From Smithellaceae bacterium (GTDB taxonomy: Bacteria; Desulfobacterota; Syntrophia; Syntrophales; Smithellaceae): a DNA stretch of 64,000 nucleotides. The translations under genes and the position numbers were made by a program. Below, in pieces: positions 18,260 through 61,204 of this stretch (positions are counted from its first letter, which is position 1; each line of letters opens with the position of its first letter). The DNA lies in assembly GCA_963682105.1 (NCBI GenBank), contig OY821638.1, positions 570,801 through 634,800 on the forward strand. Reading direction: 5' to 3'. A model generated the notes under the pieces. It had not been told where the DNA came from, made no database searches, and saw only the letters and a list, made by a program, of their open reading frames with translations.

Positions 18260-18271
18260 TCTCAAGATTAA

Positions 18272-18373
18272 CCCTTTTAATTTAATCCGGCGAGATTGAA
18301 AAAGGACAGCCCCATGAAAAACATCAGCATAAAGTTTATAAAGCCTTTCTCCGCAAGGGGAAAGGCTTTTTTT
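18272..18373 (+). promoter_or_regulatory. PyrR-binding leader RNA with intrinsic terminator (pyr attenuator)
   Basis: A stem-loop CCUUUU...AAUCCGGCGAGAUU...AAAAGG (18272-18304) resembles the PyrR binding-loop consensus (ARUCCAGAGAGGCU...AAGGA). It is followed by the terminator hairpin AAAGCCTTTC / GGAAAGGCTTT plus T7 at 18340-18373, directly upstream of pyrR. Confidence 0.6.
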
Positions 18374-18384
18374 ATGCCCGATGA

Positions 18385-19023
<639 letters not shown>

Positions 19024-29350: not shown

Positions 29351-31651
29351 ATGAGCTTTCAGTTTAAACCTGATTCCCTGAACTCCAGCATGGACGAAAG
29401 GCTGAGGATTCGGAAAAATCTTCAGGAAATAACGAACCGCATCCATGCAGCTCAGAACATTGCTCATATTCTTGTTGAAATAAAAGACGGAATTCTCAAT
29501 CTTTTCAACGCTTCTTCCATTACCATCTATGTCGTCGACAAACATCACGATGAAATCTATTCGATGTTTCTGGCCGGCACGCAAATCAAGGAAATTCGCG
29601 TCCCGATAAGCAGCCAGAGTATCGCCGGTTATGTCGCCAATACCTACAATATCGTAAATATCGGAGATGCTTACAACCAGGCTGAACTCAAAGCCATCGA
29701 TTTCGAACTGACCTTCGACTCGAGTTGGGATAAAAAATCAGGATTCCGAACCAGACAAATTCTTGCGGCGCCAATCTTTTATGAAGATCAACTCATGGGC
29801 GTCATACAGATTCTGAACAAAAAATTCGGCGAAGGCAAATTTTCCGAAGACGAAGTCGGCCTGGCCATGGAAATTGCCGAAGTGTTAGGCGTTGCTTTTT
29901 ATAACCAGCAGCGTTTTTCTCGCCGCCGTAAAACCCGCTTCGATTTTCTGATCACCCGCGGTCTGATCAAAGAAGAAGAAATGGAAGCGGCCTGGGATGA
30001 GGCCAGGGAGCAAAAAGAGTCCATCGAACATTTTTTAATGCGTAAGCATCGAATTTCCAAGGATGACATCGGCCATTCCTTTGAAGAATTCTATCGCTGC
30101 CGCTTTATTGAATACAATGAAAAAGCGGTCATTCCCGGCGATTTAATAAAAAATTTACGAAAAGACTACCTTCGCCGGGAAGTTTGGGTCCCATTGGAAA
30201 AAATTGATAATTATATCCATGTTATTGTTGATGATCCCAACAATATCCTGAAAAGAGACGCCATCGAGAACCTGCTGAAAACAAAAAAAGTAAAATACGA
30301 CATCGCTCTGACGGATGATATTCAGAAATTTATCAATCTCTTTTTCCAAACGGGAGACACTGAAAGCTCTTTCACTGATCTACTGGGAAAACTTGACGAT
30401 GAAGACAGGCCTGCCGATGACGAGGAAGGAACAGAGGACGTCACCGAATCCGACAGCGTGATCATGCAGCTTGTCAATAAAATCATCAATGACGCTTACG
30501 CCCGCCGGGCTTCCGATATCCACATTGAACCGAATGTCGGAAAGAAAAACGTGGAAATCCGCTTCCGTGTCGACGGTGATTGCGCTGTTTATCAGACAGT
30601 GCCTTATAGTTACAAAGCCGCCATGATTTCGCGCATTAAAATCATGTCGAACCTGGACATCACCGTTAAAAGACTGCCGCAGGACGGCAAGATCAAATTC
30701 CGACGGGCTTCAGGCGATGAGATTGAGCTTCGTGTGGCGTCAATTCCCACCCAGGGCGGCGTTGAAGACGTCGTCATGCGTATTCTGGCCAAAGGTGAAA
30801 CCATGCCCCTGGAAGACATGGGCCTTTCAAAACGCAATTATAACGAACTCACCAAGACCATTACCAAACCGTACGGTATGATTCTGGTTGTGGGCCCGAC
30901 CGGTTCCGGTAAAACGACCACTCTGCATGCGGCGCTGCATCACATCAATCGTCCGGACCGGAAGATCTGGACCGCCGAAGACCCTGTGGAAATCACTCAG
31001 TATGGTTTGCGCCAGGTGCAGGTTCAGCCTAAAATCGGTTTTGATTTTGCGGCGGCCATGCGATCCTTTTTGCGCGCCGATCCGGACGTCATCATGGTCG
31101 GTGAAATGCGTGACTTTGAAACCGCTAAAACAGGTGTAGAAGCTTCTTTGACCGGCCATCTGGTCTTCAGCACCCTGCATACCAACAGCGCCCCGGAAAC
31201 CATCGTGCGCCTTCTGGATATGGGCATCGATCCTCTTAACTTCGCCGATGCATTGCTGGCCATCCTGGCTCAGCGTCTGGTTCGCACTCTTTGCAAAACC
31301 TGCAAGGAACAGTATCATCCGACCAAAGAAGAATACGATGAAATCGCGGAGAGCTACGGTGCGGAAGAATTTGCAAAACTTGGCATTCCCTATAATGACG
31401 ACTTCAAATTACATCGCCCCAAGGGATGTGATATTTGCGATAAAACCGGCTATAAAGGCAGAATGGGCATTCACGAGCTGCTGGTGGCATCGGACAATAT
31501 CAAAAGACTCATTCAGAAACATGAAGCCGTTGAGGGCCTCAGAAACCAGTCCATGTCGGAAGGCATGACCACGCTTCTCCAGGACGGTATACACAAATCC
31601 CTCGCCGGATTTACCGATTTTACGCAGGTTCGCAGAGTCTGCATCAAATAA
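29351..31651 (+). CDS. GAF domain + T2SSE_N domain + GspE/PilB-family secretion-type ATPase (catalytic motifs intact)
   Basis: 766 aa. GAF-like region at about aa 30-185 and a GspE N-terminal-type domain at about aa 195-335, then an acidic linker. Motifs present: Walker A GPTGSGKTT (30893-30919), Asp box TAEDPVE, Walker B DPDVIMVGEMRD, His box TGHLVFSTLHTN, and tetracysteine CKTC...CDIC. Confidence 0.87.
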   Translation: MSFQFKPDSLNSSMDERLRIRKNLQEITNRIHAAQNIAHILVEIKDGILNLFNASSITIYVVDKHHDEIYSMFLAGTQIKEIRVPISSQSIAGYVANTYNIVNIGDAYNQAELKAIDFELTFDSSWDKKSGFRTRQILAAPIFYEDQLMGVIQILNKKFGEGKFSEDEVGLAMEIAEVLGVAFYNQQRFSRRRKTRFDFLITRGLIKEEEMEAAWDEAREQKESIEHFLMRKHRISKDDIGHSFEEFYRCRFIEYNEKAVIPGDLIKNLRKDYLRREVWVPLEKIDNYIHVIVDDPNNILKRDAIENLLKTKKVKYDIALTDDIQKFINLFFQTGDTESSFTDLLGKLDDEDRPADDEEGTEDVTESDSVIMQLVNKIINDAYARRASDIHIEPNVGKKNVEIRFRVDGDCAVYQTVPYSYKAAMISRIKIMSNLDITVKRLPQDGKIKFRRASGDEIELRVASIPTQGGVEDVVMRILAKGETMPLEDMGLSKRNYNELTKTITKPYGMILVVGPTGSGKTTTLHAALHHINRPDRKIWTAEDPVEITQYGLRQVQVQPKIGFDFAAAMRSFLRADPDVIMVGEMRDFETAKTGVEASLTGHLVFSTLHTNSAPETIVRLLDMGIDPLNFADALLAILAQRLVRTLCKTCKEQYHPTKEEYDEIAESYGAEEFAKLGIPYNDDFKLHRPKGCDICDKTGYKGRMGIHELLVASDNIKRLIQKHEAVEGLRNQSMSEGMTTLLQDGIHKSLAGFTDFTQVRRVCIK

Positions 31652-31890
31652 TCCGCTGTCTTTTCATTTCAAATTACGTCATCGATGTTCATTGTATCTT
31701 TCTCTCGTTTGATCTTCCGCCTGAAAGATCAAACGCTGTTATCTTCTTTACATTTTGTTCAATGCTTTAAACGTTTCATTGAAAGAAAAGAGAGAAAAAG
31801 TCTTCCTTCTCACAGCACAGCATCAAGACCAACCATTATTTCCAATAACAATTCATATGCTTACAAATATCTTTTCAAGATATTCATTTC

Positions 31891-31906
31891 TGGCACGCTC
31901 TTTTCA
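31891..31906 (+). promoter_or_regulatory. Sigma-54-like promoter (TGGCAC-N5-TTTCA), copy 1
   Basis: TGGCACgctctTTTCA has one mismatch to TGGCAC-N5-TTGCA, at the -12 G. It is identical in the second repeat copy, and a conserved 47-bp block lies about 120 bp upstream. Confidence 0.5.
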
Positions 31907-31979
31907 TTAGTATAAAGGCAAATAACACGGCCATGAGGCCTTAAAAAATAAAGCAATTACCCTGAGGAGGTAACAGATC

Positions 31980-32255
31980 ATGAAAAAGACATTAGGAACC
32001 ATCGTAACGGCAGCGGCAGTGATTCTTTTAACGGCAACCTTCGGATTCGCGGAATACGCGGCGGCGGGCGCTTCCGCTTTCCCGTATTTTCAACTGGGAT
32101 GCCTGATTGTGGGCGGCCTGATCCTGGTCAGCCTGAAGAGAAAATTCAATAAAATGTACACGGCCGAAGTGGTCGGCGCTTTCGCACTCTACACGGTTTT
32201 GATGGCGCTCTTCACCAACCCCGTGATCGAAGTTGTCAAGAACATCGTAAGCTGA
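31980..32255 (+). CDS. Small membrane protein, 91 aa (signal peptide + 2 TM), unknown function, copy 1
   Basis: GAGGAGG RBS upstream. MKKTLGTIVTAAAVILLTATFGFA is signal-like. The protein is 100% identical to the product of 38977-39252, with only 2 synonymous nucleotide differences. Confidence 0.65.
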   Translation: MKKTLGTIVTAAAVILLTATFGFAEYAAAGASAFPYFQLGCLIVGGLILVSLKRKFNKMYTAEVVGAFALYTVLMALFTNPVIEVVKNIVS

Positions 32256-38603: not shown

Positions 38604-38887
38604 ATTCCTTTTTTGAACATTTGTCAAGGGGGGGGGATTGGAATCGAATCGAAACAACATGAATGCATTTGACGAGAATTTAAGATGAAAGAAAACCAAA
38701 TAGGATCCCCGCCTGTTCAACACCTTTTTTATTTTTATGAATTTTCACATTTCGTTTAATGCTTAAACGTTTCATTGAAAGAAAAGAGAGAATAAGACAT
38801 TCCCGCGGTTTGCCCCACACTGTCATTAATCGTTATTTGTATCGTTATATCTTATATTTACAACTATCTTCCAAACGTCTGCATTTC

Positions 38888-38903
38888 TGGCACGCTCTTT
38901 TCA
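38888..38903 (+). promoter_or_regulatory. Sigma-54-like promoter (TGGCAC-N5-TTTCA), copy 2
   Basis: Identical to the 31891-31906 element. Confidence 0.5.
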
Positions 38904-38976
38904 TTAGTATAAAGGCAAATAACACGGCCATGAGGCCCTAAAAAATAAAACAATTACCCCGAGGAGGTAACAGATC

Positions 38977-39252
38977 ATGAAAAAGACATTAGGAACCATC
39001 GTAACGGCAGCGGCAGTGATTCTTTTAACGGCAACCTTCGGATTCGCGGAATACGCGGCGGCGGGCGCTTCCGCTTTCCCGTATTTTCAACTGGGATGCC
39101 TGATTGTGGGCGGCCTGATCCTGGTCAGCCTGAAGAGAAAATTCAATAAAATGTACACGGCCGAAGTGGTCGGCGCTTTCGCTCTCTACACGGTTTTGAT
39201 GGCGCTCTTCACCAACCCCGTGATCGAAGTTGTCAAAAACATCGTAAGCTGA
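38977..39252 (+). CDS. Small membrane protein, 91 aa, copy 2
   Basis: Protein identical to the product of 31980-32255. Confidence 0.65.
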   Translation: MKKTLGTIVTAAAVILLTATFGFAEYAAAGASAFPYFQLGCLIVGGLILVSLKRKFNKMYTAEVVGAFALYTVLMALFTNPVIEVVKNIVS

Positions 39253-39620: not shown

Positions 39621-40217
39621 TCAAGCCCAGAGCGAATAAAGCATAAACCAGGATATCTTCAAATATTCACGCCAGACTTTTTTCCAGTCGGTCGGCTTTA
39701 ACTGCCATATATTCCGAGGAGCCGCTTCGTAAGGAGTCGGCGAGAAATAATGTTTTCCGTCAATGCCGAATACTCTGGTCACAATCATTTGAATGCGGCG
39801 CATATGATAGGGGGAGCTTACAAAGATTGCCGTTTTTTTCCCGTAAAGATCCATGGTCTTTTTAGCATCCAGCAATTCCAGATGGGTGTCTTCAAAGTAA
39901 TAAGGAGCATAAGAGTTGTTTTTCCTGTAAATGTTGTTGGGGTCCGTTTTATTTTGCAGGTTTTTGATGACGCCCTGATCGATAAAATAAATTTTATGGT
40001 AAGCAGGGATAATAAGATAATCCGATAGCCCCATTTGCATCAGGTCCTGAGCATGGCGGTGGCGGGCGCTAAAATCGGGACCCAGCAAAAGAACAATCGC
40101 ATCCGATTTTTCACATGGCGTTTTATAAAGCAAAAATCCGGGCGCGGCAAATACTCCGACTGCAATAATAAGAACCGGAACAATCAGAATCCGCGCGATT
40201 TTTTTAATAATCTTCAC
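39621..40217 (-). CDS. YdcF/DUF218 (ElyC-like) family protein
   Basis: 198 aa with an N-terminal TM anchor. The IVLLLG and FVSSPYHMRR motifs are typical of DUF218. Confidence 0.7.
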   Translation of the reverse strand: MKIIKKIARILIVPVLIIAVGVFAAPGFLLYKTPCEKSDAIVLLLGPDFSARHRHAQDLMQMGLSDYLIIPAYHKIYFIDQGVIKNLQNKTDPNNIYRKNNSYAPYYFEDTHLELLDAKKTMDLYGKKTAIFVSSPYHMRRIQMIVTRVFGIDGKHYFSPTPYEAAPRNIWQLKPTDWKKVWREYLKISWFMLYSLWA

Positions 40218-40227
40218 TAAAATGTCC

Positions 40228-40256
40228 TTGACAATACAACTAATTATTTATATCAA
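40228..40256 (+). promoter_or_regulatory. Candidate sigma-70 promoter for the kinase/NtrC pair
   Basis: TTGACA (40228-40233), a 17-nt spacer, then TATCAA (40251-40256). Confidence 0.4.
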
Positions 40257-40431
40257 AACGACGATATCGCTAAAGATTTAACCCATGTTGAAGAGGTACC
40301 TGTGTTTAATGCCCGGATAAAGCAAATACGCCGTCGTCAGAAATGACTTTTACTAAAAATATTTTAGACAGCTTTCCTTCGTAAATTCAATATAAATTAT
40401 TTATTTTATTTGCAAAGGTTTTGTAACAACC

Positions 40432-41508
40432 ATGTATGATGCCACAACAGAAAGACGCCGCAATTCCGATCACGATAAAAGCATGGATATTTCGCTTTAT
40501 AAAAGCATTATGGAAACGATTGATCTGGGCATTGTCATTCTCGGCATTAAAAGAAGAGACCTCATCTTCAAGAACCGGTTTGCTTCCGAAATTTTCCAGC
40601 ACAATCCGAATCTTCTGGAATACCGAAATCTTCTGTCCTTGCTGTTGACGGACTATGGCAGCAAGCCTGAAGAAGAAATTTTTGGGAAAAATTACACACT
40701 CCGCTTTAAAAATCGTCTTCTGGGCTACACGCCATACATGATTTCCGAAAGCTTCATCATGATTATCATCCGCGACATTACGGAAAGAAGTCGTCTGGAA
40801 TCCATCGCGGAAGCCGTAAATTCAATGGATAACATCGGTTATGTTTTCTCCGGCATCCGGCACGAACTGGGCAATCCCATCAATTCCATAAAAATGACGT
40901 TGAGCGTGCTTAAACGAAACTTAAGCGAATATTCTCCGGCCGCCGTTGAAAAATTTGTCGACCGCGCTATGACGGAAATTTCGCGTGTTGAATTCCTGCT
41001 TCAGGCGCTGAAAAGCTTCAGCATCTTCGAAAATCCGGAAATTCAAACCGTTCAGATCGATGATTTTCTGACGCGTTTCATCGCCCTGATCAGCAATGAC
41101 TTACAGCAGTCCGGGATAAAGATCGGTAAAACGGTTGAATCAAACGTCAAGACCGTCAGTGCTGATCCCCGCCTGCTGCATCAGGTGATGATGAATCTGA
41201 TCACCAACGCCTCAGACGCTCTTACCGGTAAGGAAAACAGAAAGATCAACATCCGGGCGCTCAAACACGACGGTTTAGTCGCCATCGTTGTTGATGACAA
41301 CGGATGTGGAATGTCCAAAGAGGCTCAGGCCAACCTGTTTAAACCTTTTTTCACAACAAAGAATCGGGGAACAGGCCTGGGATTGATGATCACCCTGAAG
41401 ATGGTGACGCTCATGAAGGGCAACATGGAAATTAAAAGCATCAAAGACAAGGGAACGCGAGTAGCCGTCATTTTGCCCCTGGGAGCCAGGCCCAATGCTA
41501 AAAGTTAA
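40432..41508 (+). CDS. Cytoplasmic sensor histidine kinase (PAS-like + HisKA + HATPase_c)
   Basis: H box FSGIRHELGNPIN, N box MMNLITNASDA, G1 DDNGCGM and G2 GTGLGL are present, with no TM helices. The start is uncertain (alternative Met at 40483). Confidence 0.82.
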   Translation: MYDATTERRRNSDHDKSMDISLYKSIMETIDLGIVILGIKRRDLIFKNRFASEIFQHNPNLLEYRNLLSLLLTDYGSKPEEEIFGKNYTLRFKNRLLGYTPYMISESFIMIIIRDITERSRLESIAEAVNSMDNIGYVFSGIRHELGNPINSIKMTLSVLKRNLSEYSPAAVEKFVDRAMTEISRVEFLLQALKSFSIFENPEIQTVQIDDFLTRFIALISNDLQQSGIKIGKTVESNVKTVSADPRLLHQVMMNLITNASDALTGKENRKINIRALKHDGLVAIVVDDNGCGMSKEAQANLFKPFFTTKNRGTGLGLMITLKMVTLMKGNMEIKSIKDKGTRVAVILPLGARPNAKS

Positions 41509-42844
41509 AAGAAAAATTCTGATTATCGACGACAATGACATTTTTTGCGAATCCGTCAAAGACCTGCTTACTGATCAAAACACGGACATCCTAACCGCCA
41601 ACACGGGTAAAGACGGCCTGCAACTGTGCACTGAAAACAAAATTGACGTTGTTATTCTGGACCAGAAGCTTCCCGACACACAGGGTGTGACGTTGTGTCC
41701 TTCCATCCTGAAACAAAACGAACAGACCAAAATCATTTTTGTCACCGCTTACCCGAGCTTCGCCAATGCCATAGACGCCATCAAAGTCGGGGCGCACGAT
41801 TATCTTTCCAAACCTTTCGAAATGGCGGAACTGGAATTGACCATCAAGCAGGCTTTCCGCACGCAGGAACTGGAAAAAACCGAGCAGATTCAGAATTACC
41901 AGAATATCCGGGAAAGCGAGGAGAATGATCTGATAGCCGGCGAAGGCGCATTTGATGAGATCAAACGCATGATTAATCTGGCGGCTGACAGCGATGCGCC
42001 TGTTCTCATTACCGGAGAAACCGGAACAGGCAAGAACGTTGTGGCGCGTGCCATTCACTATAAAAGCTCGCTTCCGGCCAGGCTTTTCCTGACAGCCAAT
42101 TGCGCCGCCTTTCCGGAAAACCTCATCGAGGCGGAATTGTTCGGATCGGAAAAGGGAGCCTTCACCGGCGCCAGCGCGACCCGCAAAGGCATATTCGAAC
42201 TGGCTGAGGGAGGAACGCTGTTACTCGATGAAATCGGCTCAATGCCCATTCATCTGCAGTCCAAGCTTTTAGGCGTCCTGGAAGAAAAAAAAATCCGGCG
42301 CATCGGCAGTGAAACCGTTAAACCCATCAATGTTCGTGTCATTGCCGCGGCCAATAACGACCTGGAAGAAGCCACTAAGGACAAAACATTTCGAAACGAT
42401 CTCTATTACCGCCTCAGCGTGATTCGCATTCATCTCCCGCCGTTGCGCGAAAGAAAAGAAGACATCCCCAAACTGTGCGAATATTTCATAGCAAAAATGT
42501 CCCGCGATGTGAATGTTCACCTCTCCGATGCGGAGGTGTCCCGGCTTATGGACTATGAGTGGCCCGGAAACGTCCGTGAATTGAAAAACGTCATTGAGCG
42601 TTCGCTGATCATTCAGCGAGGTCAACCTCTTCGACCTTCCCTGCTTTTGCGAACCGGCGTCACGCCTGCGGCAAACGCTTCCGCCGGACAGGACGATGAT
42701 GAAATCGTACCTCTTGAAGACACGGAAAAAAAATGCATCAGCCAGGCTCTGAAAAAATATAACGGCAACTACTCCCAATCCGCCAGGGCGCTGGGTATTT
42801 CCCTTTCCACACTCAAAAGAAAAGTAAAATCCTATCATCTTTAA
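41495..42844 (+). CDS. Sigma-54-dependent response regulator (NtrC family: REC + AAA+ + Fis-type HTH)
   Basis: 449 aa. REC domain (ILIIDDN, VVILDQKLPD), Walker A GETGTGKN, sigma-54 contact loop GAFTGA, Walker B LLLDEIG, and a C-terminal HTH SQSARALGISLSTLKRK. It overlaps the kinase gene by 14 nt. Confidence 0.92.
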   Translation: MLKVKRKILIIDDNDIFCESVKDLLTDQNTDILTANTGKDGLQLCTENKIDVVILDQKLPDTQGVTLCPSILKQNEQTKIIFVTAYPSFANAIDAIKVGAHDYLSKPFEMAELELTIKQAFRTQELEKTEQIQNYQNIRESEENDLIAGEGAFDEIKRMINLAADSDAPVLITGETGTGKNVVARAIHYKSSLPARLFLTANCAAFPENLIEAELFGSEKGAFTGASATRKGIFELAEGGTLLLDEIGSMPIHLQSKLLGVLEEKKIRRIGSETVKPINVRVIAAANNDLEEATKDKTFRNDLYYRLSVIRIHLPPLRERKEDIPKLCEYFIAKMSRDVNVHLSDAEVSRLMDYEWPGNVRELKNVIERSLIIQRGQPLRPSLLLRTGVTPAANASAGQDDDEIVPLEDTEKKCISQALKKYNGNYSQSARALGISLSTLKRKVKSYHL

Positions 42845-42978
42845 AAAGCTGTTGTGATACAAATCGCCTTTTCGATCAAAATGAATCATTCAGCTTGAAC
42901 GTAAACCAGGGAAATTGTTTCCAGATATCCAACACAAGTAATTGATATAACTCATTTACACAAAATACATTATTATTT

Positions 42979-42994
42979 GGGCACACCCTTTGCT
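42979..42994 (+). promoter_or_regulatory. Sigma-54 promoter (GGGCAC-N5-TTGCT)
   Basis: tGGGCACaccctTTGCTt has the GG and GC dinucleotides at canonical spacing. It lies 135 bp downstream of the NtrC-type gene and about 95 bp upstream of the REC gene ATG. Confidence 0.65.
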
Positions 42995-43089
42995 TGGTTG
43001 TCTTAGAATCGTCTATTCATTAAGACTTAAGCGATTTGGGGATTTCCTTAAAAAAGACTGAAGTTCTAAAAGAAGATAAGTTGAATGAG

Positions 43090-43542
43090 ATGGCACAGGA
43101 AAAAAACGATGTATTAACAACCGAAACCGTGAAAAGCCCGAAATACCATCGAAAAGATTCTGGTATTCTGGAAGTTTTAATTGTCGATGATGAAGAAACG
43201 CTTCTTTTAAGTATAGACGACGGTTTAAGCATTTATAAGCAATATTTCACACTCCTGACGGCCACAAACGGCGTTGATGCAGTGAATCTGCTGAAATCAA
43301 AAATGTCGATTGACCTGGTCATTACAGATCTTAAGATGCCCAGAATGGATGGTTTTGAACTTCTAACGTACATACAAAGAAACTTTCCCCATATTCCCGT
43401 TATTCTCATGACGGCTTACGGTACGCCTAAAATTGAGGAAATTGTCAAAACGATGGGGATTTACGGTTACCTGGAAAAACCACTGGACATCAATACGATT
43501 GCAGAAACTATTTTTGAGGCATTGAAGATAAAAATTCATTGA
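43090..43542 (+). CDS. Single-domain response regulator (receiver only)
   Basis: Start at MAQEKND; the track ORF starts at TTG 43036. The receiver has the acidic pocket VDDEE, phospho-acceptor VITDLKMP, plus MTAYG and EKP, and there is no output domain. Confidence 0.8.
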   Translation: MAQEKNDVLTTETVKSPKYHRKDSGILEVLIVDDEETLLLSIDDGLSIYKQYFTLLTATNGVDAVNLLKSKMSIDLVITDLKMPRMDGFELLTYIQRNFPHIPVILMTAYGTPKIEEIVKTMGIYGYLEKPLDINTIAETIFEALKIKIH

Positions 43543-43573: not shown

Positions 43574-46174
43574 ATGGCGAAGATTGGTCATTTTAATAAA
43601 AACACTCAAAAAGAGGAACTTTCAGAAGCGCCTCAGGTCGAGGAACTCTTAAAGAATCTTGAGTTTCACAAAGCCATTCAGAGCATTACCAGCCGCATCA
43701 GCACCGCACCAACCCTTCGCGATATTTTAGTCGATATCAAAGAAGACATCCGCAATCTGTTCAATATCCACATCCTGACCATCTACCTGATTGATAAAAG
43801 CAGGAAGGAAATTTTTACAATCCGGAATGACGGCAGCGAAATCCGCTTCCCTGTCAACAATTCAACGCTGGCCGGTTATGTCACCCAAAAGAAACGGATG
43901 CTTCATATTGCCGATGCCTATAATGAACGGGAAATTCGAAAAATTCACGATCTTCTCGCCATAGACCGGACTCTGGATAAAAAGACGGGCATCCTGACGG
44001 GTCAGGTCATCGCCAGTCCCATCATGCGCGACAATCTTATCCTCGGCGTCATGGAAATTATGAACAAAAAGGGCGGCGATAACATCGATGATTATAATCA
44101 GATTTTTCTCGACGAAATTACAGGCGCTCTGGCCAAAGCCTTTTTCATGCACCTGAACTTGACCGAAGCCAAACAAATGTACGGCGCAAAATATGACTGG
44201 CTGATCAAGAACGGCGTGATCACCGCTGATCAGATGGACAACGTTATCAGAGAAATCAGCGAAAACGCAGAAGATATCTCATCTGTTCTTTTAGACAGTT
44301 ATCATGTCTCAAAAACCGACATCGGCAGGGCTCTGGCATCCTACTACTCCTGCCAGTTCGTACCATACAGCGACGACATGCCCATCCCACGCGACCTGCT
44401 GATCGGCATTGAGAAATACACGCTGATCAACATGCTGTGGGTCCCGATTAAAGTCGTCAAGGGAAAAATCCATGTGGCAATGGATGACCCTTCCGATCAG
44501 ATCCGGAAAAACAAAATAGAAGATATTCTGGAGACTAAATCCATTCAGTATGATGTGGCCATCGCCTCCGACATTTTGCGTTATATCAACCGTTTTTATT
44601 ATTCAGACGAAGAGGACGTCCCACCGCGTCAGAAATTTGAAATCCCGGCTCCGCAAAAACAGTTCACTTTGAGTCCTGTTTCTCTCAAACCCGATGAGAA
44701 CAAAGAAATCGTCTGCAGTGAAGAATTAACAGCTCCGCAACGATTAAAACCGGTTGTACTGGAGCCGTCAGGCGAGTTATCCGAGGAAGTTGCCACCCGG
44801 GGAATGAAAACAAGACAAGCCTCCTTATCATCAGGGGATGCGGTGAAACTTCTTGTTACACACACACATGAATTACCCAACCAACCCGAAAAACGAAAAT
44901 TTCCGGATATTGACTCTCTGTCTGAAATCAAAAACCATGCTCTGCCAAAACCATCCAATGTCGTCAGTCTGCCGGAAGGCCAGATGCCTCAGCCTCTGAC
45001 CAGCATCATTAACAATGCCTGCAGCCGTCGAGCCTCCGATATACACCTGGAACCGGATTCGGCCACGGGCCGGGTAACACTGCGCGTGCGAATCGACGGA
45101 CAGTTTTCAATTCTTCAGACGCTGTCTCCTTCTGAATACGAAACCTTGACCACGCAAGTAAAAACCCTGGCCAATCTCGACAACCAGAACACCTCTATCA
45201 TTCAAAACGGCCAACTGAGCCTGAAAAGACCTTCAGGAGATGAACTCCACATGAGGGTTTCTTTTATTCCAACCCGCTCCGGTATGGAAGACACGGTTAT
45301 CCATCTTTCAACCAGACTGAAAAAAATACCGCTGGAGCTTTTGGGTTTGTCGGAAAATAGTTATACGGACATGGTGAATATTCTGCGTCAGCCCAGAGGG
45401 TTGATCCTGATTACAGGCCCCGCTGATTCAGGTATAACCACAACGCTTCATGCGTGTCTTGATAACATCAACACACCTGAGATTAAAATCTGGACGGCGG
45501 AGGAACCGATAGAGATTGTACAGACCGGATTGCGGCAGGTTCAGATCGCCCCGCACAAAGGATTTGACTTTACAACGGTCCTGAATTCATTCCTGATGGC
45601 AGATCCGGACGTCATCATGGCCAGCCGGATCGATAACCAAACCACGGCCAAGCTCTGCATGAAGGCGGCCGTCAAAGGATGTCTCGTTCTGGGATCACTG
45701 TGGACGGAAAACATTCAGGATACCATCGACCGATGTCTGGACATGGAAACAGGCCATCTTTTATTTGCCGACGCCATGCTGGCTGTGGTTCAGCAAAGAC
45801 TGATCAAAACCCTCTGTCCGAAATGCAAGGAAAAATACCGTCCCAGCCCTGAAGAATATGAGGAGCTTGCTCAGATTTACGGGCAAGAAGATTTCGAAAA
45901 ACTCAACCTGCCCTATTCCAACGCCTTCAGTCTTTTCCGTCCCAAAGGTTGCCCTGATTGCGGACAGACGGGATATATGGGCAGGATGAGCGTTTCCGAA
46001 ACCCTGATTTTCACGTCTCAGATTAAACGAATGATCCGACGGAAAGAATCCTCCCTGCTGGTCTATCAGGCGGCGGTTACGTCGGGAATGACCACCCTGA
46101 TGCAGGACGGCATTAATAAAGTTATACAGGGATACAGCGACAGCAGGCATGTGAGACTGACTTGCCTGAGATAG
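43574..46174 (+). CDS. GAF + T2SSE_N + GspE/PilB-like protein with degenerate ATPase motifs (predicted pseudo-ATPase)
   Basis: 866 aa with the same architecture as the 29351-31651 product. The Walker A equivalent is GPADSGITT (45416-45442, Lys to Ile), Walker B is DPDVIMASRIDN (Glu lost) and the His box is KGCLVLGSLWTEN (both His lost). The tetracysteine CPKC...CPDC is retained, and the linker is about 130 aa of low-complexity sequence. Confidence 0.82.
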   Translation: MAKIGHFNKNTQKEELSEAPQVEELLKNLEFHKAIQSITSRISTAPTLRDILVDIKEDIRNLFNIHILTIYLIDKSRKEIFTIRNDGSEIRFPVNNSTLAGYVTQKKRMLHIADAYNEREIRKIHDLLAIDRTLDKKTGILTGQVIASPIMRDNLILGVMEIMNKKGGDNIDDYNQIFLDEITGALAKAFFMHLNLTEAKQMYGAKYDWLIKNGVITADQMDNVIREISENAEDISSVLLDSYHVSKTDIGRALASYYSCQFVPYSDDMPIPRDLLIGIEKYTLINMLWVPIKVVKGKIHVAMDDPSDQIRKNKIEDILETKSIQYDVAIASDILRYINRFYYSDEEDVPPRQKFEIPAPQKQFTLSPVSLKPDENKEIVCSEELTAPQRLKPVVLEPSGELSEEVATRGMKTRQASLSSGDAVKLLVTHTHELPNQPEKRKFPDIDSLSEIKNHALPKPSNVVSLPEGQMPQPLTSIINNACSRRASDIHLEPDSATGRVTLRVRIDGQFSILQTLSPSEYETLTTQVKTLANLDNQNTSIIQNGQLSLKRPSGDELHMRVSFIPTRSGMEDTVIHLSTRLKKIPLELLGLSENSYTDMVNILRQPRGLILITGPADSGITTTLHACLDNINTPEIKIWTAEEPIEIVQTGLRQVQIAPHKGFDFTTVLNSFLMADPDVIMASRIDNQTTAKLCMKAAVKGCLVLGSLWTENIQDTIDRCLDMETGHLLFADAMLAVVQQRLIKTLCPKCKEKYRPSPEEYEELAQIYGQEDFEKLNLPYSNAFSLFRPKGCPDCGQTGYMGRMSVSETLIFTSQIKRMIRRKESSLLVYQAAVTSGMTTLMQDGINKVIQGYSDSRHVRLTCLR

Positions 46175-56173: not shown

Positions 56174-56249
56174 TCCCCAGTAGCTCAGTCGGTAGAGCGG
56201 CTGGCTGTTAACCAGCATGTCCGTGGTTCGAGTCCGCGCTGGGGAGCCA
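56174..56249 (+). tRNA. tRNA-Asn (anticodon GTT), CCA encoded
   Basis: Manual cloverleaf: acceptor TCCCCAG/CTGGGGA, D arm GCTC-AGTCGGTA-GAGC, anticodon arm GCTGG-CTGTTAA-CCAGC, variable loop ATGTC, T arm CGTGG-TTCGAGT-CCGCG, discriminator G, then CCA. Confidence 0.93.
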
Positions 56250-57537: not shown

Positions 57538-58050
57538 ATGATGCCTCTGGGATATACAGATCGCCTCCCCAAAAGTACCAGAATCCGGCAACGATTTACA
57601 GGAGACGTTTTGATACCAACAACAGACAGCAACCTGCATCAGGAAGCAATACGAAGAACGCTGGCCCTTCGGGCCGGGGATGCCCCTGATGCGAACGCGG
57701 TTGCCGAAGCCACCTTGAGCACCTGGCGCCAGGTGGAAGTCCGGCTCACACCGGTGATCGGCGAGCGGGGTGTTGATGTTCTCCTGGACCGCACACTGCA
57801 CTTGACAAGCGCTGTTTTCCCCTGGCTGGCATTTACCGGCAATCAAGAGGACAGGACCGCTGCGCTTTCATATGTCAGGATATGCCTGGCAGGCAACCAG
57901 ACCAATATTGCCATAGAAGCAAGCTATACGCTTCTTACGAACTTCGTTAATCTTTTGGCGACCTTAATTGGAGAATCATTAACTGAGCGTTTGTTGAGTC
58001 CGGTCTGGGTGCCCCCGTTACCGGCATCTGAACAGGAGACGCCATCATGA
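57538..58050 (+). CDS. Hypothetical protein, no family recognised, upstream of and coupled to the KaiC-like gene
   Basis: 170-aa ORF whose stop overlaps the KaiC-like start (ATGA). An alternative TTG start at 57610 is preceded by GGAG. No family motif was recognised. Confidence 0.6.
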   Translation: MMPLGYTDRLPKSTRIRQRFTGDVLIPTTDSNLHQEAIRRTLALRAGDAPDANAVAEATLSTWRQVEVRLTPVIGERGVDVLLDRTLHLTSAVFPWLAFTGNQEDRTAALSYVRICLAGNQTNIAIEASYTLLTNFVNLLATLIGESLTERLLSPVWVPPLPASEQETPS

Positions 58051-59537
58051 ACAACAAAGTGACCATTCGTCGACTCGCCACCGGTGTACCTGGGCTGGAT
58101 GCCATCCTGGGTGGCGGTCTGCCGGAGTTCTCATTCAACATCATTGTGGGGCCTCCGGGTTCCGGCAAGACGACACTGGCACACCAAATCATGTTCGCCC
58201 TGGCAACTCGCGAAAATCCGGCGCTGTTTTTCACCGTGCTCGGCGAGCCGCCCTTGAAGATGCTGCGTTACCAGCAGCAGTTCTCGTTTTTCGAACCGGT
58301 CATGATCAATGAATCCATTCGCTTCATCGATTTACATCATGAGGTCTCGACGGGCAATTTCGGCCAGGTGCTGGCGCGCATCACACAGGATGTTAAGGCA
58401 TCCTCTCCCGGGCTGGTTTTTGTCGATTCATTCCGCTCGCTCATGCTGGAGGCGCGACACCATGCAAAAGGCGAGATCAGCCTGCAACAGTTTATTTCGC
58501 AACTCGGGATACTTCTCGGCGGCTGGCAGGCCACCACCTTCCTGATCGGGGAATATTTGTCGGAGAGCGAACCCCATCCGGTCTTTACGGTGGCCGACGG
58601 CTTGCTGTCTCTGGAGCAAAGCGTCTACCGCAATTCGATGGTGCGCAGGCTGCAGGTTCTGAAAATGCGTGGACAGGCGACCCGCCCGGGGATGCATACA
58701 TTCCGCATCACCGGTGACGGGATCGAAGTCTTTCCGGCGGCTATTATTCGTGACGATGCCGGAGCAAGGCAGGAGGCCTCCGGATCGCTCACCGGCAAAA
58801 CAAGGCTCGCCATGGGCGTGCCGGGACTGGACGATATGCTGGGCGGCGGCTTGCCTTCGGGTTATTCACTCCTGGTCGCAGGGCCGTCCGGATCGGGCAA
58901 GACCATTCTTGCCACGGCCTTTCTGGCCGAAGGTGTACGCCGTGGCGAGCCGGGCGTCATCGTTGCGTTTGAGCAAACGCCAAGTCAGTCGCGGACCCGT
59001 ACACTCGACCACATGGTCCGTGCAGGACAAATCGGATTAATCAATACCCGCTCGCTGGATCTTTCGATCGATGAGATCGTTTCGCATTTAATTGCCCTCA
59101 TTCATCAGATGAAAGCCACCCGGGTGGTCATCGATTCACTTTCCGGATTCGAACTGGCGGTGGCGCCGAGCTTTCGCGAGGACTTTCGCGAGTCTCTGTT
59201 CCGGATGGTCGCCGTGCTGTCCAACATCGGTGTCACGGTGCTGATGACGTCGGAACTTGAAGACCGCTATACCGATTTGCGGTTCAGTCCTTACGGATCC
59301 GCATTTCTCACCGACGCGATCATCGTCCAGCGTTACATCGAGATCGGAAGCCGCCTGAAGCGCGTTCTGGCAATCGTCAAAGTGCGGGGCAGCACCCACA
59401 GCAATGAGCTCCGACAGTTTGAAATCACCGATGAAGGCATCATCATTGGCAAGCCGGTGCTTGATTATGATGGGCTCCTGGGCGGACGGCCGACGCGGGC
59501 GCCTGCATCTGATATCTTCCAGCAAGGTAACCCGTAA
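58047..59537 (+). CDS. KaiC-like double RecA-domain ATPase
   Basis: 496 aa with two tandem domains, each containing GVPGLDxxLGGGLP plus a Walker A (GPPGSGKTT; GPSGSGKTI) and a Walker B (LVFVDSF; RVVIDSL). The C-terminal KVRGSTHSNELRQFEITDEGI matches the KaiC/RadA-like pattern. Confidence 0.88.
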   Translation: MNNKVTIRRLATGVPGLDAILGGGLPEFSFNIIVGPPGSGKTTLAHQIMFALATRENPALFFTVLGEPPLKMLRYQQQFSFFEPVMINESIRFIDLHHEVSTGNFGQVLARITQDVKASSPGLVFVDSFRSLMLEARHHAKGEISLQQFISQLGILLGGWQATTFLIGEYLSESEPHPVFTVADGLLSLEQSVYRNSMVRRLQVLKMRGQATRPGMHTFRITGDGIEVFPAAIIRDDAGARQEASGSLTGKTRLAMGVPGLDDMLGGGLPSGYSLLVAGPSGSGKTILATAFLAEGVRRGEPGVIVAFEQTPSQSRTRTLDHMVRAGQIGLINTRSLDLSIDEIVSHLIALIHQMKATRVVIDSLSGFELAVAPSFREDFRESLFRMVAVLSNIGVTVLMTSELEDRYTDLRFSPYGSAFLTDAIIVQRYIEIGSRLKRVLAIVKVRGSTHSNELRQFEITDEGIIIGKPVLDYDGLLGGRPTRAPASDIFQQGNP

Positions 59538-61204
59538 TGAAAAAGAAGAAAGAAACTCCGGGGAAAGCCATGAACGGGCGGTCACTTGAGGGAAACGAAA
59601 ATACTCTGTTTCCCGCCTCTGCGTCCAGTTCCTTCATCGCCTCACGTGAGTCGACCGTCCTTATTCGTGAAGAGTCTGACAGCTTGCGCAGGGATATTGC
59701 GGACCTGCGGAAAGAAGCGGCAAACCTTCGCCGGGAAACCGCCGACCTGCGGAAGAAATTACTTCACACCAGGAGAAAGACTGCCGGGGCCAAAGCCGAG
59801 CTGGGCGCGCGCACCGAGGCATTGTTGCGTGAAGCGAATGAGCAGCTTGTCGTTGCGGCTATTCACGCCCAGACGATGAACGAGACCGCACAGCAGACCG
59901 CCCTTCAGATGACCCACATGGCCAAACACGACTTTCTTACAGGTTTACCAAACCGTATGCTGCTCAACGACCGCCTGGAGCGGTCCATTGCGCTGGCTAA
60001 ACGTCAGGGCAAGAAGGTCGCACTGATGTATATGGACGTCGATCACTTCAAGCACATCAATGATTCGCTCGGGCATATGATCGGCGACCAGCTTTTACAG
60101 TGCATTGCCAAGCGCCTGTATGCCTGCGTTCGCCTCTCGGATACCGTCAGCCGCCTGGGGGGCGACGAATTCGTGGTGCTTCTGGCCGATGTTGAGGATG
60201 CGCATGGCGCCGCTCTCACCGCTCAAAAGCTGATCGAAGCCATGGCCGAACCCCATCTCATCGGCATCCACAGGCTCCACGTCACCCTCAGTATCGGCAT
60301 CAGCCTCTACCCGGACAACGGCAAGGACATTGAATCGGTGATTCGCAACGCCGACACCGCGATGTATCATGCCAAGAAAAAAGGACGAAACAACTACCAG
60401 GTATTCACACCGGACATGAAAGTCCGCGCGGTGAAAAGGCAATTCGTTAAGCAGGCGCTGCACCGCGCACTCGAACAAAATAAATTTGTATTGCATTACC
60501 AGCCAAAGGTAAATCTCGCAACCGGCGCGATTACCGGCGCCGAAGCGCTGCTGCGCTGGCAGCGATCCAATCAGCGGATCGCCTACCCGGCGCAGTTTTT
60601 GAGCGTCGCCGAAGAGAGCGGCCTCATTGGGCCGATTGGCCAGTGGGCGCTCGGCGAAGCCTGCCGTCAGGCGCAAGTCTGGCTGCAATCCGGCCTTGAT
60701 TTCGGTCAGATGGCCGTCAACATCTCGGCGATGGAGTTCCAGGGAAAGGATTTTTTTGCCGGCGTGCAGAACATCCTCAAGAACACCGGTCTGGATCCCC
60801 ATCACCTCACCTTAGAGCTGACCGAAACGGGAATGATGCAGGACACACAACAAACGATGGATATCTTGCAAACACTGAAAGATCTTGGCGTAAAGATTGC
60901 CATCGATGACTTCGGCACTGGCTATTCCAGCCTGAGCTATTTGCGCAGTTTCCCGATCGACGAACTCAAGATTGACCAGTCTTTCGTGCAGGCTATCGAC
61001 AGTGATGAAGGCGATGCCATCGTCAGCGCCGTCATTGCAATCGGCAAGAGCCTCAAGCAGCAAGTCGTGGCCGAGGGCATCGAAACAAATAAACAGCTTG
61101 CCTTCCTCCAATCCCGGCATTGTGCTGAGGGACAAGGTTATTACTTCGGCTGCCCCGTACCTGCCGAAGGATTCACCGCATTGCTGGCAGGCGTCAGGCA
61201 TTAA
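59537..61204 (+). CDS. Coiled-coil + GGDEF + EAL domain protein (c-di-GMP turnover)
   Basis: 555 aa. The N-terminus is Arg/Leu-rich coiled coil with repeated DLRKEAANLRRETADLRKK. An intact GGDEF motif (RLGGDEFVV) with an upstream RxxD-like region is present, along with EAL motifs (EALLRW, DDFGTGYSSLSYL, KIDQSF, EGIE). The ATG overlaps the KaiC-like stop by 1 nt. Confidence 0.88.
   Translation: MKKKKETPGKAMNGRSLEGNENTLFPASASSSFIASRESTVLIREESDSLRRDIADLRKEAANLRRETADLRKKLLHTRRKTAGAKAELGARTEALLREANEQLVVAAIHAQTMNETAQQTALQMTHMAKHDFLTGLPNRMLLNDRLERSIALAKRQGKKVALMYMDVDHFKHINDSLGHMIGDQLLQCIAKRLYACVRLSDTVSRLGGDEFVVLLADVEDAHGAALTAQKLIEAMAEPHLIGIHRLHVTLSIGISLYPDNGKDIESVIRNADTAMYHAKKKGRNNYQVFTPDMKVRAVKRQFVKQALHRALEQNKFVLHYQPKVNLATGAITGAEALLRWQRSNQRIAYPAQFLSVAEESGLIGPIGQWALGEACRQAQVWLQSGLDFGQMAVNISAMEFQGKDFFAGVQNILKNTGLDPHHLTLELTETGMMQDTQQTMDILQTLKDLGVKIAIDDFGTGYSSLSYLRSFPIDELKIDQSFVQAIDSDEGDAIVSAVIAIGKSLKQQVVAEGIETNKQLAFLQSRHCAEGQGYYFGCPVPAEGFTALLAGVRH

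Follow-up and report, generated by a model that had tools for sequence, protein, structure and literature searches.

Within the 64,000-nt stretch of Smithellaceae DNA analysed here (the window; all unlabelled coordinates are window positions), a pair of genes encoding a histidine kinase and an NtrC-family activator lies beside a genuine-looking sigma-54 promoter, which appears to head the genes of a stand-alone receiver and of a GspE/PilB-like pseudo-ATPase. The best overall explanation seems to be a classical two-component sigma-54 switch with an unusual output, and we hold it with reasonable confidence. The wiring, i.e. kinase, NtrC-type activator, enhancer and sigma-54 promoter, is textbook and offers little that is new by itself. 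The value lies in the output, a PilB/GspE-family pseudo-ATPase that selection has maintained throughout the clade. It is probably increased by a second operon, found in relatives, in which a PatA-like regulator in split form is encoded together with a GTPase switch resembling MglA/MglB.

In the mechanism that we propose, a conserved sigma-70-like promoter would express a soluble PAS kinase together with the NtrC-family response regulator. The PAS domain would sense a cytoplasmic cue, and the kinase would phosphorylate the receiver domain of the activator. The activator would then assemble on a palindrome at 42876-42898, reach sigma-54 RNA polymerase at 42979-42994 over an AT-rich spacer of ~90 bp, and open the promoter. 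With a predicted transcription start near 43005, the transcript would encode the stand-alone receiver and the catalytically dead GspE/PilB-like protein. We consider this chain of activation, from the kinase to a transcript covering both genes, likely to very likely; the dependence on sigma-54 and on the activator, as well as the position of the start, are what we infer from motifs and their conservation. Most likely, the circuit tunes a PilB-type motor or polarity module and does not act in isolation.

All four genes lie on the + strand. The kinase gene (40432-41508, 358 amino acids (aa)) overlaps the activator gene (41495-42844, 449 aa) by 14 nt, and an intergenic gap of 245 bp separates the latter from the receiver gene (43090-43542, 150 aa; REC-A). 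The pseudo-ATPase gene (43574-46174, 866 aa) starts 31 nt past the receiver gene and ends 3 nt short of the convergent mutS. No terminator on the + strand was predicted by our scan between the sigma-54 promoter and the end of the pseudo-ATPase gene. The promoter element, GGGCAC-ACCCT-TTGCT, was read at 42979-42994 on the + strand, 135 bp past the activator stop (42844), exactly where an earlier note on this DNA had placed GGGCAC-N5-TTGCT; the other coordinates given in the note proved right as well. It matches the canonical sigma-54 pattern TGGCAC-N5-TTGCW, with GG at -24, GC at -12 and the proper spacing.

The earlier note called this promoter strong, and it is the comparison with syntenic relatives that makes the -24/-12 element convincing. 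A scan with one genome per species yielded 16 syntenic loci (17 with the window), all from metagenome-assembled genomes (MAGs) of Smithella, Smithellaceae or Syntrophaceae, in which the gene order is DUF218, kinase, activator, an optional receiver, GspE-like gene and mutS; the window thereby falls into this group. Of the 16 loci, 14 have GGCAY-N5-TTGCT ~130 bp past the activator stop. When the intergenic regions of 13 sequences were aligned, the -24/-12 element had 9 invariant columns out of 15 (mean identity 0.90) and a 23-bp block at 42876-42898 has 16 out of 23 (0.93), vs at most 1 invariant column and a mean identity of 0.44-0.56 in the flanking intergenic DNA. The element and the palindrome stand out as conserved islands amid diverged DNA in 15 of the 17 loci.

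The 23-bp block, to which no strand is assigned, reads TCAAAATGA-ATCAT-TCAGCTTGA and forms an imperfect inverted repeat around the core TGAAT-C-ATTCA. From its centre, 42887, there are 93 bp to the downstream -24 GG, and across the loci this distance is always 88-94 bp. Each locus carrying the motif has one copy; the window likewise holds one copy, no further copies were found in it, and no other local member of a regulon was found. This is the anatomy expected of an enhancer, or upstream activating sequence, for a dimeric Fis-type helix-turn-helix (HTH) protein, and we therefore regard the block as a candidate site for the activator. A possible IHF site, TATCAATTACTTG (42935-42947, - strand), lies in the AT-rich spacer (72% A+T), although its basis is weak: an exact WATCAANNNNTTR match was found only in the window, L001 and L014 (3 of 15 loci), and we do not claim the site as functional. 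Rfam, run on the whole window, returned nothing in the 5' leader of the receiver gene.

The activator has the features of a receiver-type NtrC-family enhancer-binding protein: a receiver domain with its acceptor Asp, located in ILDQKLPD (Response_reg, 3.8e-27), an AAA+ domain with the GAFTGA loop (Sigma54_activat, 1e-64) followed by AAA_lid_14, and a C-terminal Fis-type HTH (HTH_8, 1.1e-11), as assigned with Pfam and NCBIfam. Walker A (GETGTGKN) is at residue 174, Walker B (LLLDEIG) at 242, and the GAFTGA loop, which had been described beforehand as intact, starts at residue 221 and is indeed so. The recognition helix, LGISLSTLKRK, shows no change across the 17 loci. An identity as AtoC was rejected, since the best NCBIfam model scored 388 bits against a cut-off of 714; similarly, AtoS was the best model for the kinase, at 174.5 bits vs a cut-off of 646, and was rejected too. 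No NCBIfam equivalog assignment was reached for the pair.

The same regulatory anatomy recurs elsewhere in related genomes. A database search with the receiver core returned 592 stand-alone receivers, and look-ups of gene context showed two locus types. Class A receivers (131-170 aa) belong to loci of the order kinase, activator, receiver, pseudo-ATPase and mutS. Class B receivers (188-195 aa) have a short C-terminal extension and are 74% identical to the window receiver over ~125 residues. Their operon (L079, L080, L087, L089) encodes the receiver, a PATAN (PatA_N) protein, a 123-aa protein, a 60-aa protein, a Roadblock/LC7 (MglB-like) protein and an Arf/Ras-like (MglA-like) GTPase, and continues with a 400-490 aa protein, in some loci a Zn-ribbon protein, and a DUF3426 protein. 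It lies ~2-3 kb from an intact GAF-MshEN-T2SSE ATPase gene, with divergent Peripla_BP_6 and 4HB_MCP_1 genes beside it, and looks like a split PatA-type regulator combined with an MglA/MglB switch in Smithellaceae. Both locus types are present on one 4.78-Mb contig. A receiver tree was built to polarise the two receiver classes, and its branches were too short to resolve them.

Upstream of the class B receiver gene we find TCAAAATGAACAGGTCATCTTG (L079, L080) or TCAAAATGAATTGTTCAACTTG (L087), followed 89-91 bp on by GGCAT-N5-TTGCT, and from this promoter to the receiver ATG there are 53-82 bp. L089 carries TCAAAACGG-GTTGG-TCAAAATGA and, 89 bp later, GGTAC-GCTTA-TTGCA; this locus comes from the same MAG as L011, a kinase locus without a local promoter. 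The enhancer/promoter pair before the class B operon was found in four lineages. The class B operon is thus very probably an unlinked second target of the same activator in related genomes, and the regulon of the activator would most likely comprise two operons, with the window promoter most likely a Smithella-clade addition to it. The circuit had been described as self-contained; with enhancer, spacing and promoter recurring before an unlinked operon, that description probably does not hold. The 23-bp enhancer also provides a concrete handle for regulon definition in metagenomes and for biochemical tests.

Several observations weigh against the proposed switch or against its extent. The lone -24/-12 match is not significant in a 64-kb window: the core GGCAC-N5-TTGC has 1 match where 0.75 are expected by chance, and 49 of 100 shuffles hold at least one. 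The element gains its significance from its position, strand and conservation in relatives; by simple arithmetic, the chance of a core match on the right strand of this 245-bp gap is ~0.001. Only a single enhancer palindrome is visible, although many NtrC-type activators use at least 2 sites. No rpoN was found among the 37 window open reading frames (ORFs) scanned against Pfam, which cover the window apart from seven ORFs at 15.6-23.3 kb and some gaps, so that sigma-54 in this organism is presumed solely from the activator with its intact GAFTGA. The class B operon was found in related genomes, and the window organism may lack it. No terminator was predicted between the activator and receiver genes, and read-through from the upstream promoter may therefore contribute. 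Finally, L011 and L012, the most distant loci, as well as L085 and L086 are without the local enhancer and sigma-54 promoter, which implies that the local wiring is clade-specific.

Some of these observations would also fit a simpler arrangement, in which the -24/-12 match does not work, the receiver and pseudo-ATPase genes are merely the distal genes of a four-gene operon driven from the sigma-70-like promoter, and the activator acts elsewhere. The missing terminator after the activator gene, the one core match that a window of this size would hold by chance, and L011, L012, L085 and L086, which are arranged exactly in this way without a local promoter, all speak for it. Against it, the element and the palindrome form conserved islands at fixed spacing in 15 of 17 loci, and the enhancer/promoter pair recurs before another operon. 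We consider the four-gene operon very improbable and retain the sigma-54 switch.

The pseudo-ATPase seems to be the constant, main output of the circuit. The earlier note had described its gene as degenerate and GspE-like, and both attributes are borne out by the sequence. The protein matches T2SSE (2.5e-72) and also MshEN, with family assignments from Pfam and NCBIfam. Its Walker A reads GPADSGIT, without Lys; ASR replaces GE in Walker B; and the His box, SLWTEN, has no His. The tetracysteine Zn motif, CPKC...CPDC with two CxxC, is kept. The loss is not peculiar to the window: the Walker A Lys is gone in all 15 aligned kinase-linked orthologues plus L078, L083 and L085, and all 15 aligned orthologues are also without the Walker B Glu and the His-box His. 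The architecture consists of a GAF-like N-terminus, an MshEN fold, a linker (341-480) and the T2SSE domain, and the conservation profile points to purifying selection that is strongest in the GAF-like N-terminus. An exact-sequence look-up of the protein found it not on record.

Two further observations concern the shape of this family. The linker, residues 341-480 (44594-45013), comprises ~140 poorly conserved and probably disordered residues between the MshEN-like region and the ATPase core. L016 and L083 have shorter forms (~790 aa) that look intermediate, in which GPTGSG is kept and Ile occupies the position of the Walker A Lys.

A paralogue of the pseudo-ATPase, a GAF-MshEN-T2SSE protein of 766 aa, is encoded on the + strand at 29351-31651, after glyQ and glyS (glyQS) and 12 kb upstream. 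Its tblastn identity to the pseudo-ATPase is 36-46%, and most of the 341-480 linker is missing from it. Its orthologues in L001 and L012, which are 91% and 85% identical to it, have intact catalytic motifs; judged by these orthologues, it is the probable live counterpart of the pseudo-ATPase. In L001, L012 and L085 the live paralogue lies just beyond DUF218, near the kinase gene, and dead and live copies would therefore flank the two-component genes in the ancestral layout. If the pseudo-ATPase output and the probable second operon hold true, Smithella-type syntrophs have a signal-inducible control of a PilB-like motor that would be built from paralogous dead and live parts. No pilin, pilus-platform, or other pilus or secretion machinery genes were found among the window ORFs in the Pfam scan. 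We do not invoke control by cyclic di-GMP (c-di-GMP), as the strict c-di-GMP MshEN motif is absent from both paralogues.

The third gene of interest encodes the receiver. As previously noted, it is a receiver-only regulator with all phospho-acceptor residues: Response_reg (6.6e-25) is its only Pfam domain, no output domain was found, and the DD, D, T, Y and K residues lie in IVDDEE, VITDLKMP, LMTAYG and YLEKP. The protein has 150 aa from the ATG at 43090, or 168 aa from an in-frame TTG at 43036; several close database homologues have 150 aa and the closest one (99% identical) has 168 aa. By tblastn, the gene is present only in the window, L002, L004, L011, L012, L014 and L018 among the 17 loci. 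It is absent in the other 10 (L001, L003, L005-L010, L015 and L016), where the promoter directly precedes the GspE-like gene. The orthologues share 64-89% identity over a conserved 120-aa core, with a variable N-terminal tail. Receiver-containing loci are scattered on a neighbour-joining tree of kinase plus activator, a tree without bootstrap, with the deepest branches included. The simplest reading is that the receiver is ancestral and may have been lost ~5 times independently. Judged by this distribution, it appears to be an accessory, optional add-on rather than the core of the design.

This distribution bears on the two-tier phosphorelay that had been suggested for the locus. No Hpt domain was found in the four locus proteins (Pfam, NCBIfam) or in the other window ORFs scanned, so that the locus should not be called a phosphorelay; 10 of the 17 orthologous loci have no receiver gene, while promoter and pseudo-ATPase are kept. 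At most, the pathway is a branched one with one kinase and two receivers. The underlying idea can be restated as a coherent feed-forward loop, in which activator and stand-alone receiver both obtain their phosphoryl group from the kinase, and the phospho-receiver binds and controls the GAF/ATPase-like protein. The receiver does hold all acceptor and switch residues, its gene, where present, is always immediately upstream of the pseudo-ATPase gene, and neither of the receiver paralogues has a different kinase gene linked to it. Omnitrophota (L022) also have stand-alone receiver genes directly before a PilB-type ATPase gene. The best indirect argument for the kinase as phosphodonor comes from L012, L085 and L086, where the receiver ATG overlaps the activator stop, making the receiver a translationally coupled third gene of the two-component operon.

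However, the pseudo-ATPase persists in the 10 loci that have lost the receiver, and no region of it was found to be conserved only in receiver-containing genomes. The two receiver domains are only 30% identical, and by our reading 2 of the 5 alpha-1 positions that serve partner specificity are identical. With no Hpt domain, the loop would not be a strict phosphorelay either. Phosphorylation of the stand-alone receiver(s) by the kinase has, in our estimate, somewhat less than an even chance. Action of the receiver on the pseudo-ATPase, as well as the feed-forward loop as a whole, appears unlikely, though worth keeping in view; phosphotransfer and contact with the pseudo-ATPase or, for class B, with the PATAN protein are both conjectured from gene arrangement and residues.

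The same receiver could instead be a mere phosphate sink, which is induced by the pathway and drains phosphoryl groups from the kinase to give negative feedback, with no direct link to the pseudo-ATPase. A single-domain receiver without an output domain would suit this role, in the PDB its sequence comes closest to Spo0F and to the receivers of FleR and NtrC, which places Spo0F among the closest solved relatives, and the promoter position puts expression of the receiver under the very pathway to be damped. Its dispensability in many genomes also fits a tuning element. On the other hand, the 120-aa core is conserved well past the phosphorylation pocket, and the 74%-identical paralogue is encoded beside a PATAN protein, suggesting that receivers of this family have protein targets. 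We regard the sink as improbable, more so than the feed-forward loop.

One more possibility, to which we likewise give a low probability, is that the sigma-54 operon supplies two inducible look-alikes that compete with the PATAN/MglA/MglB/PilB-like module: one copies the receiver and can be phosphorylated, the other copies the PilB-like ATPase and is catalytically dead. If so, the activator would switch on the real module (receiver-B, PATAN, MglB and MglA) and the look-alike pair together; in competition with the real parts, the look-alikes would take up phosphate, bind the PATAN protein or occupy positions in the ATPase hexamer, and could gate or reshape the motor output. Such an arrangement would give syntrophic Desulfobacterota a layer of pseudo-enzymes in the regulation of a type IV filament-like ATPase.

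At the input end of the proposed sigma-54 switch, the kinase contains HisKA and HATPase_c (Pfam), with the H-box His within IRHELGNP (residue 142 onward) and with N, G1 and G2 boxes present. The earlier description of a cytoplasmic PAS-like kinase overlapping the activator gains support from structure rather than from sequence searches. Pfam matched no PAS domain, and a sensor-domain profile run against PDB sequences gave chance-level matches only, none of them a PAS domain. In the AlphaFold model, however, residues 1-135 (predicted local distance difference test, pLDDT, 75) have a PAS topology of 2 strands, helices and 3 strands, and the best Foldseek matches of the model in the PDB come from the cytoplasmic PAS domain of WalK, from LOV histidine kinases and from PAS domains of other kinases (E as low as 4e-6). 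On reading the sequence, no hydrophobic or transmembrane segment was seen in the kinase. The sensor region is thus modelled as a soluble PAS fold, which agrees with the overlapping-gene, cytoplasmic kinase envisaged before.

Kinase residues 21-133 (40492-40830) are almost invariant among 12 orthologues. The sensor is near-invariant although the pseudo-ATPases of the same orthologues have diverged to 44-66% identity, and such constancy implies a very specific ligand or partner. A protein database search with the sensor domain gave 4 matches, a number that is no measure of rarity, since the same collection holds further orthologues.

Upstream of the kinase gene, a sigma-70-like element on the + strand (40224-40259) contains TTGACA at 40228-40233, whose first base is the start coordinate given in the earlier note, and TATATC/TATCAA at 40249-40256. 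This block (TTGACA plus TTATTTATATCAAA) is nearly invariant in all 17 loci, the most distant ones included, while the remaining intergenic DNA has diverged or been deleted. Its -10 hexamer is non-canonical, and our consensus scan did not list the element. The block also abuts the start of the DUF218 gene (39621-40217, - strand), which is divergent from the kinase gene. The block probably serves the kinase-activator operon as its promoter, or else as an operator in common with the DUF218 gene.

Among known systems, PilS-PilR of Pseudomonas, Myxococcus and Geobacter is a two-component system that activates a sigma-54 pilin promoter. The likeness consists in a kinase and an NtrC-family activator that are encoded together, and in an enhancer with a -24/-12 promoter on an adjacent gene from the world of type IV pili and type II secretion. 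PilS, however, is a membrane sensor, whereas the window kinase is apparently soluble with a single PAS domain, and the target is a receiver with a dead PilB/GspE-like protein rather than a pilin. With no transmembrane segment seen in the kinase and no pilin among the window ORFs scanned, we rejected membership in PilS-PilR. In ZraS-ZraR of E. coli and Salmonella, the small product of the adjacent sigma-54 target, zraP, is considered to exert feedback on the system itself. The resemblance lies in a two-component sigma-54 system with an adjacent gene for a small protein; the accessory protein here is a cytoplasmic receiver rather than a periplasmic chaperone, and feedback is in our case only hypothetical.

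The second operon brings to mind the cyanobacterial PatA-type receivers PixG and PixE, whose output domain, PATAN, binds PilB1 and PilC (bioRxiv 10.1101/2021.06.11.447907); mglA and mglB near PATAN genes have been noted before (PMC4316618). In the class B loci, the gene directly before that of the PATAN protein encodes a close paralogue of the window receiver, and the gene of an intact PilB-like ATPase lies nearby. In contrast to PatA-type proteins, REC and PATAN are on separate genes in class B, and the window receiver is paired with a pseudo-ATPase, with neither a PATAN domain nor a PATAN neighbour. Control by sigma-54 and an activator, as proposed here, also differs from control by a chemosensory kinase. 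PilB of Myxococcus xanthus acts as a signalling protein for exopolysaccharide production (PMC5544727) and thus provides a precedent for a PilB-type signal transducer that is not just a motor. That protein is an active motor ATPase, whereas here a whole orthologous clade has lost the catalytic residues.

The layout itself is familiar in this phylum. The passages searched in the regulome paper on Desulfovibrio vulgaris Hildenborough (PMC4641369) describe 22 receiver-type sigma-54 activators, typically beside the operons that they control, which have a sigma-54 promoter and a palindrome upstream; going by these passages, an activator gene adjoining its sigma-54 target is the usual arrangement in Desulfobacterota. 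The term GspE did not occur in the passages searched, and no GspE-type target was met there. A recent review of PilB cofactors contains neither 'GAF' nor 'catalytically inactive', and no passage on dead PilB paralogues. Nothing specific was found in the literature on this system, on PilB/GspE pseudo-ATPases, or on sigma-54 in Syntrophus or Smithella.

A few other features of the window and of related loci deserve mention. In the Omnitrophota locus (L022, 4663-8568), two stand-alone receiver genes lie directly before a canonical MshEN-T2SSE ATPase gene and a T2SSF (PilC-like) gene. The window itself contains a direct repeat of ~390 bp (31767-32152 and 38763-39149, 95-97% identity), which duplicates the gene of an identical 91-aa small membrane protein (31980-32255 and 38977-39252) with no Pfam match. 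The repeats bracket a 7-kb block on the - strand that encodes an FGGY sugar kinase, an FAD-linked oxidase, a glycerol-3-phosphate-dehydrogenase-like DAO protein and a GntR/FCD regulator; the block is missing from the syntenic L012 and has the look of an island for glycerol catabolism that was inserted. Upstream of the 91-aa gene, CTGGCACG-N4-TTTCATT is followed by TATAAAGGCAAAT (31889-31925 and 38886-38922; ~1560-1600 in L012), and this CTGGCACG/TATAAAGGCAAAT element is kept between the window and the distant L012 despite diverged flanks. The element is probably another promoter of the sigma-54 type, whose -12 (TTTC, not TTGC) is unusual. No copy of the 23-bp enhancer lies near it, so that another activator would be needed.

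At 58047-61204, a gene for a KaiC-like double-domain ATPase is followed immediately by a GGDEF-EAL gene. Over the whole window, Rfam matched only one tRNA gene (56174-56246) and a PyrR-binding leader (RF00515, 56 bits; 18270-18375), which is located 100 nt upstream of the ORF at 18475-19023.

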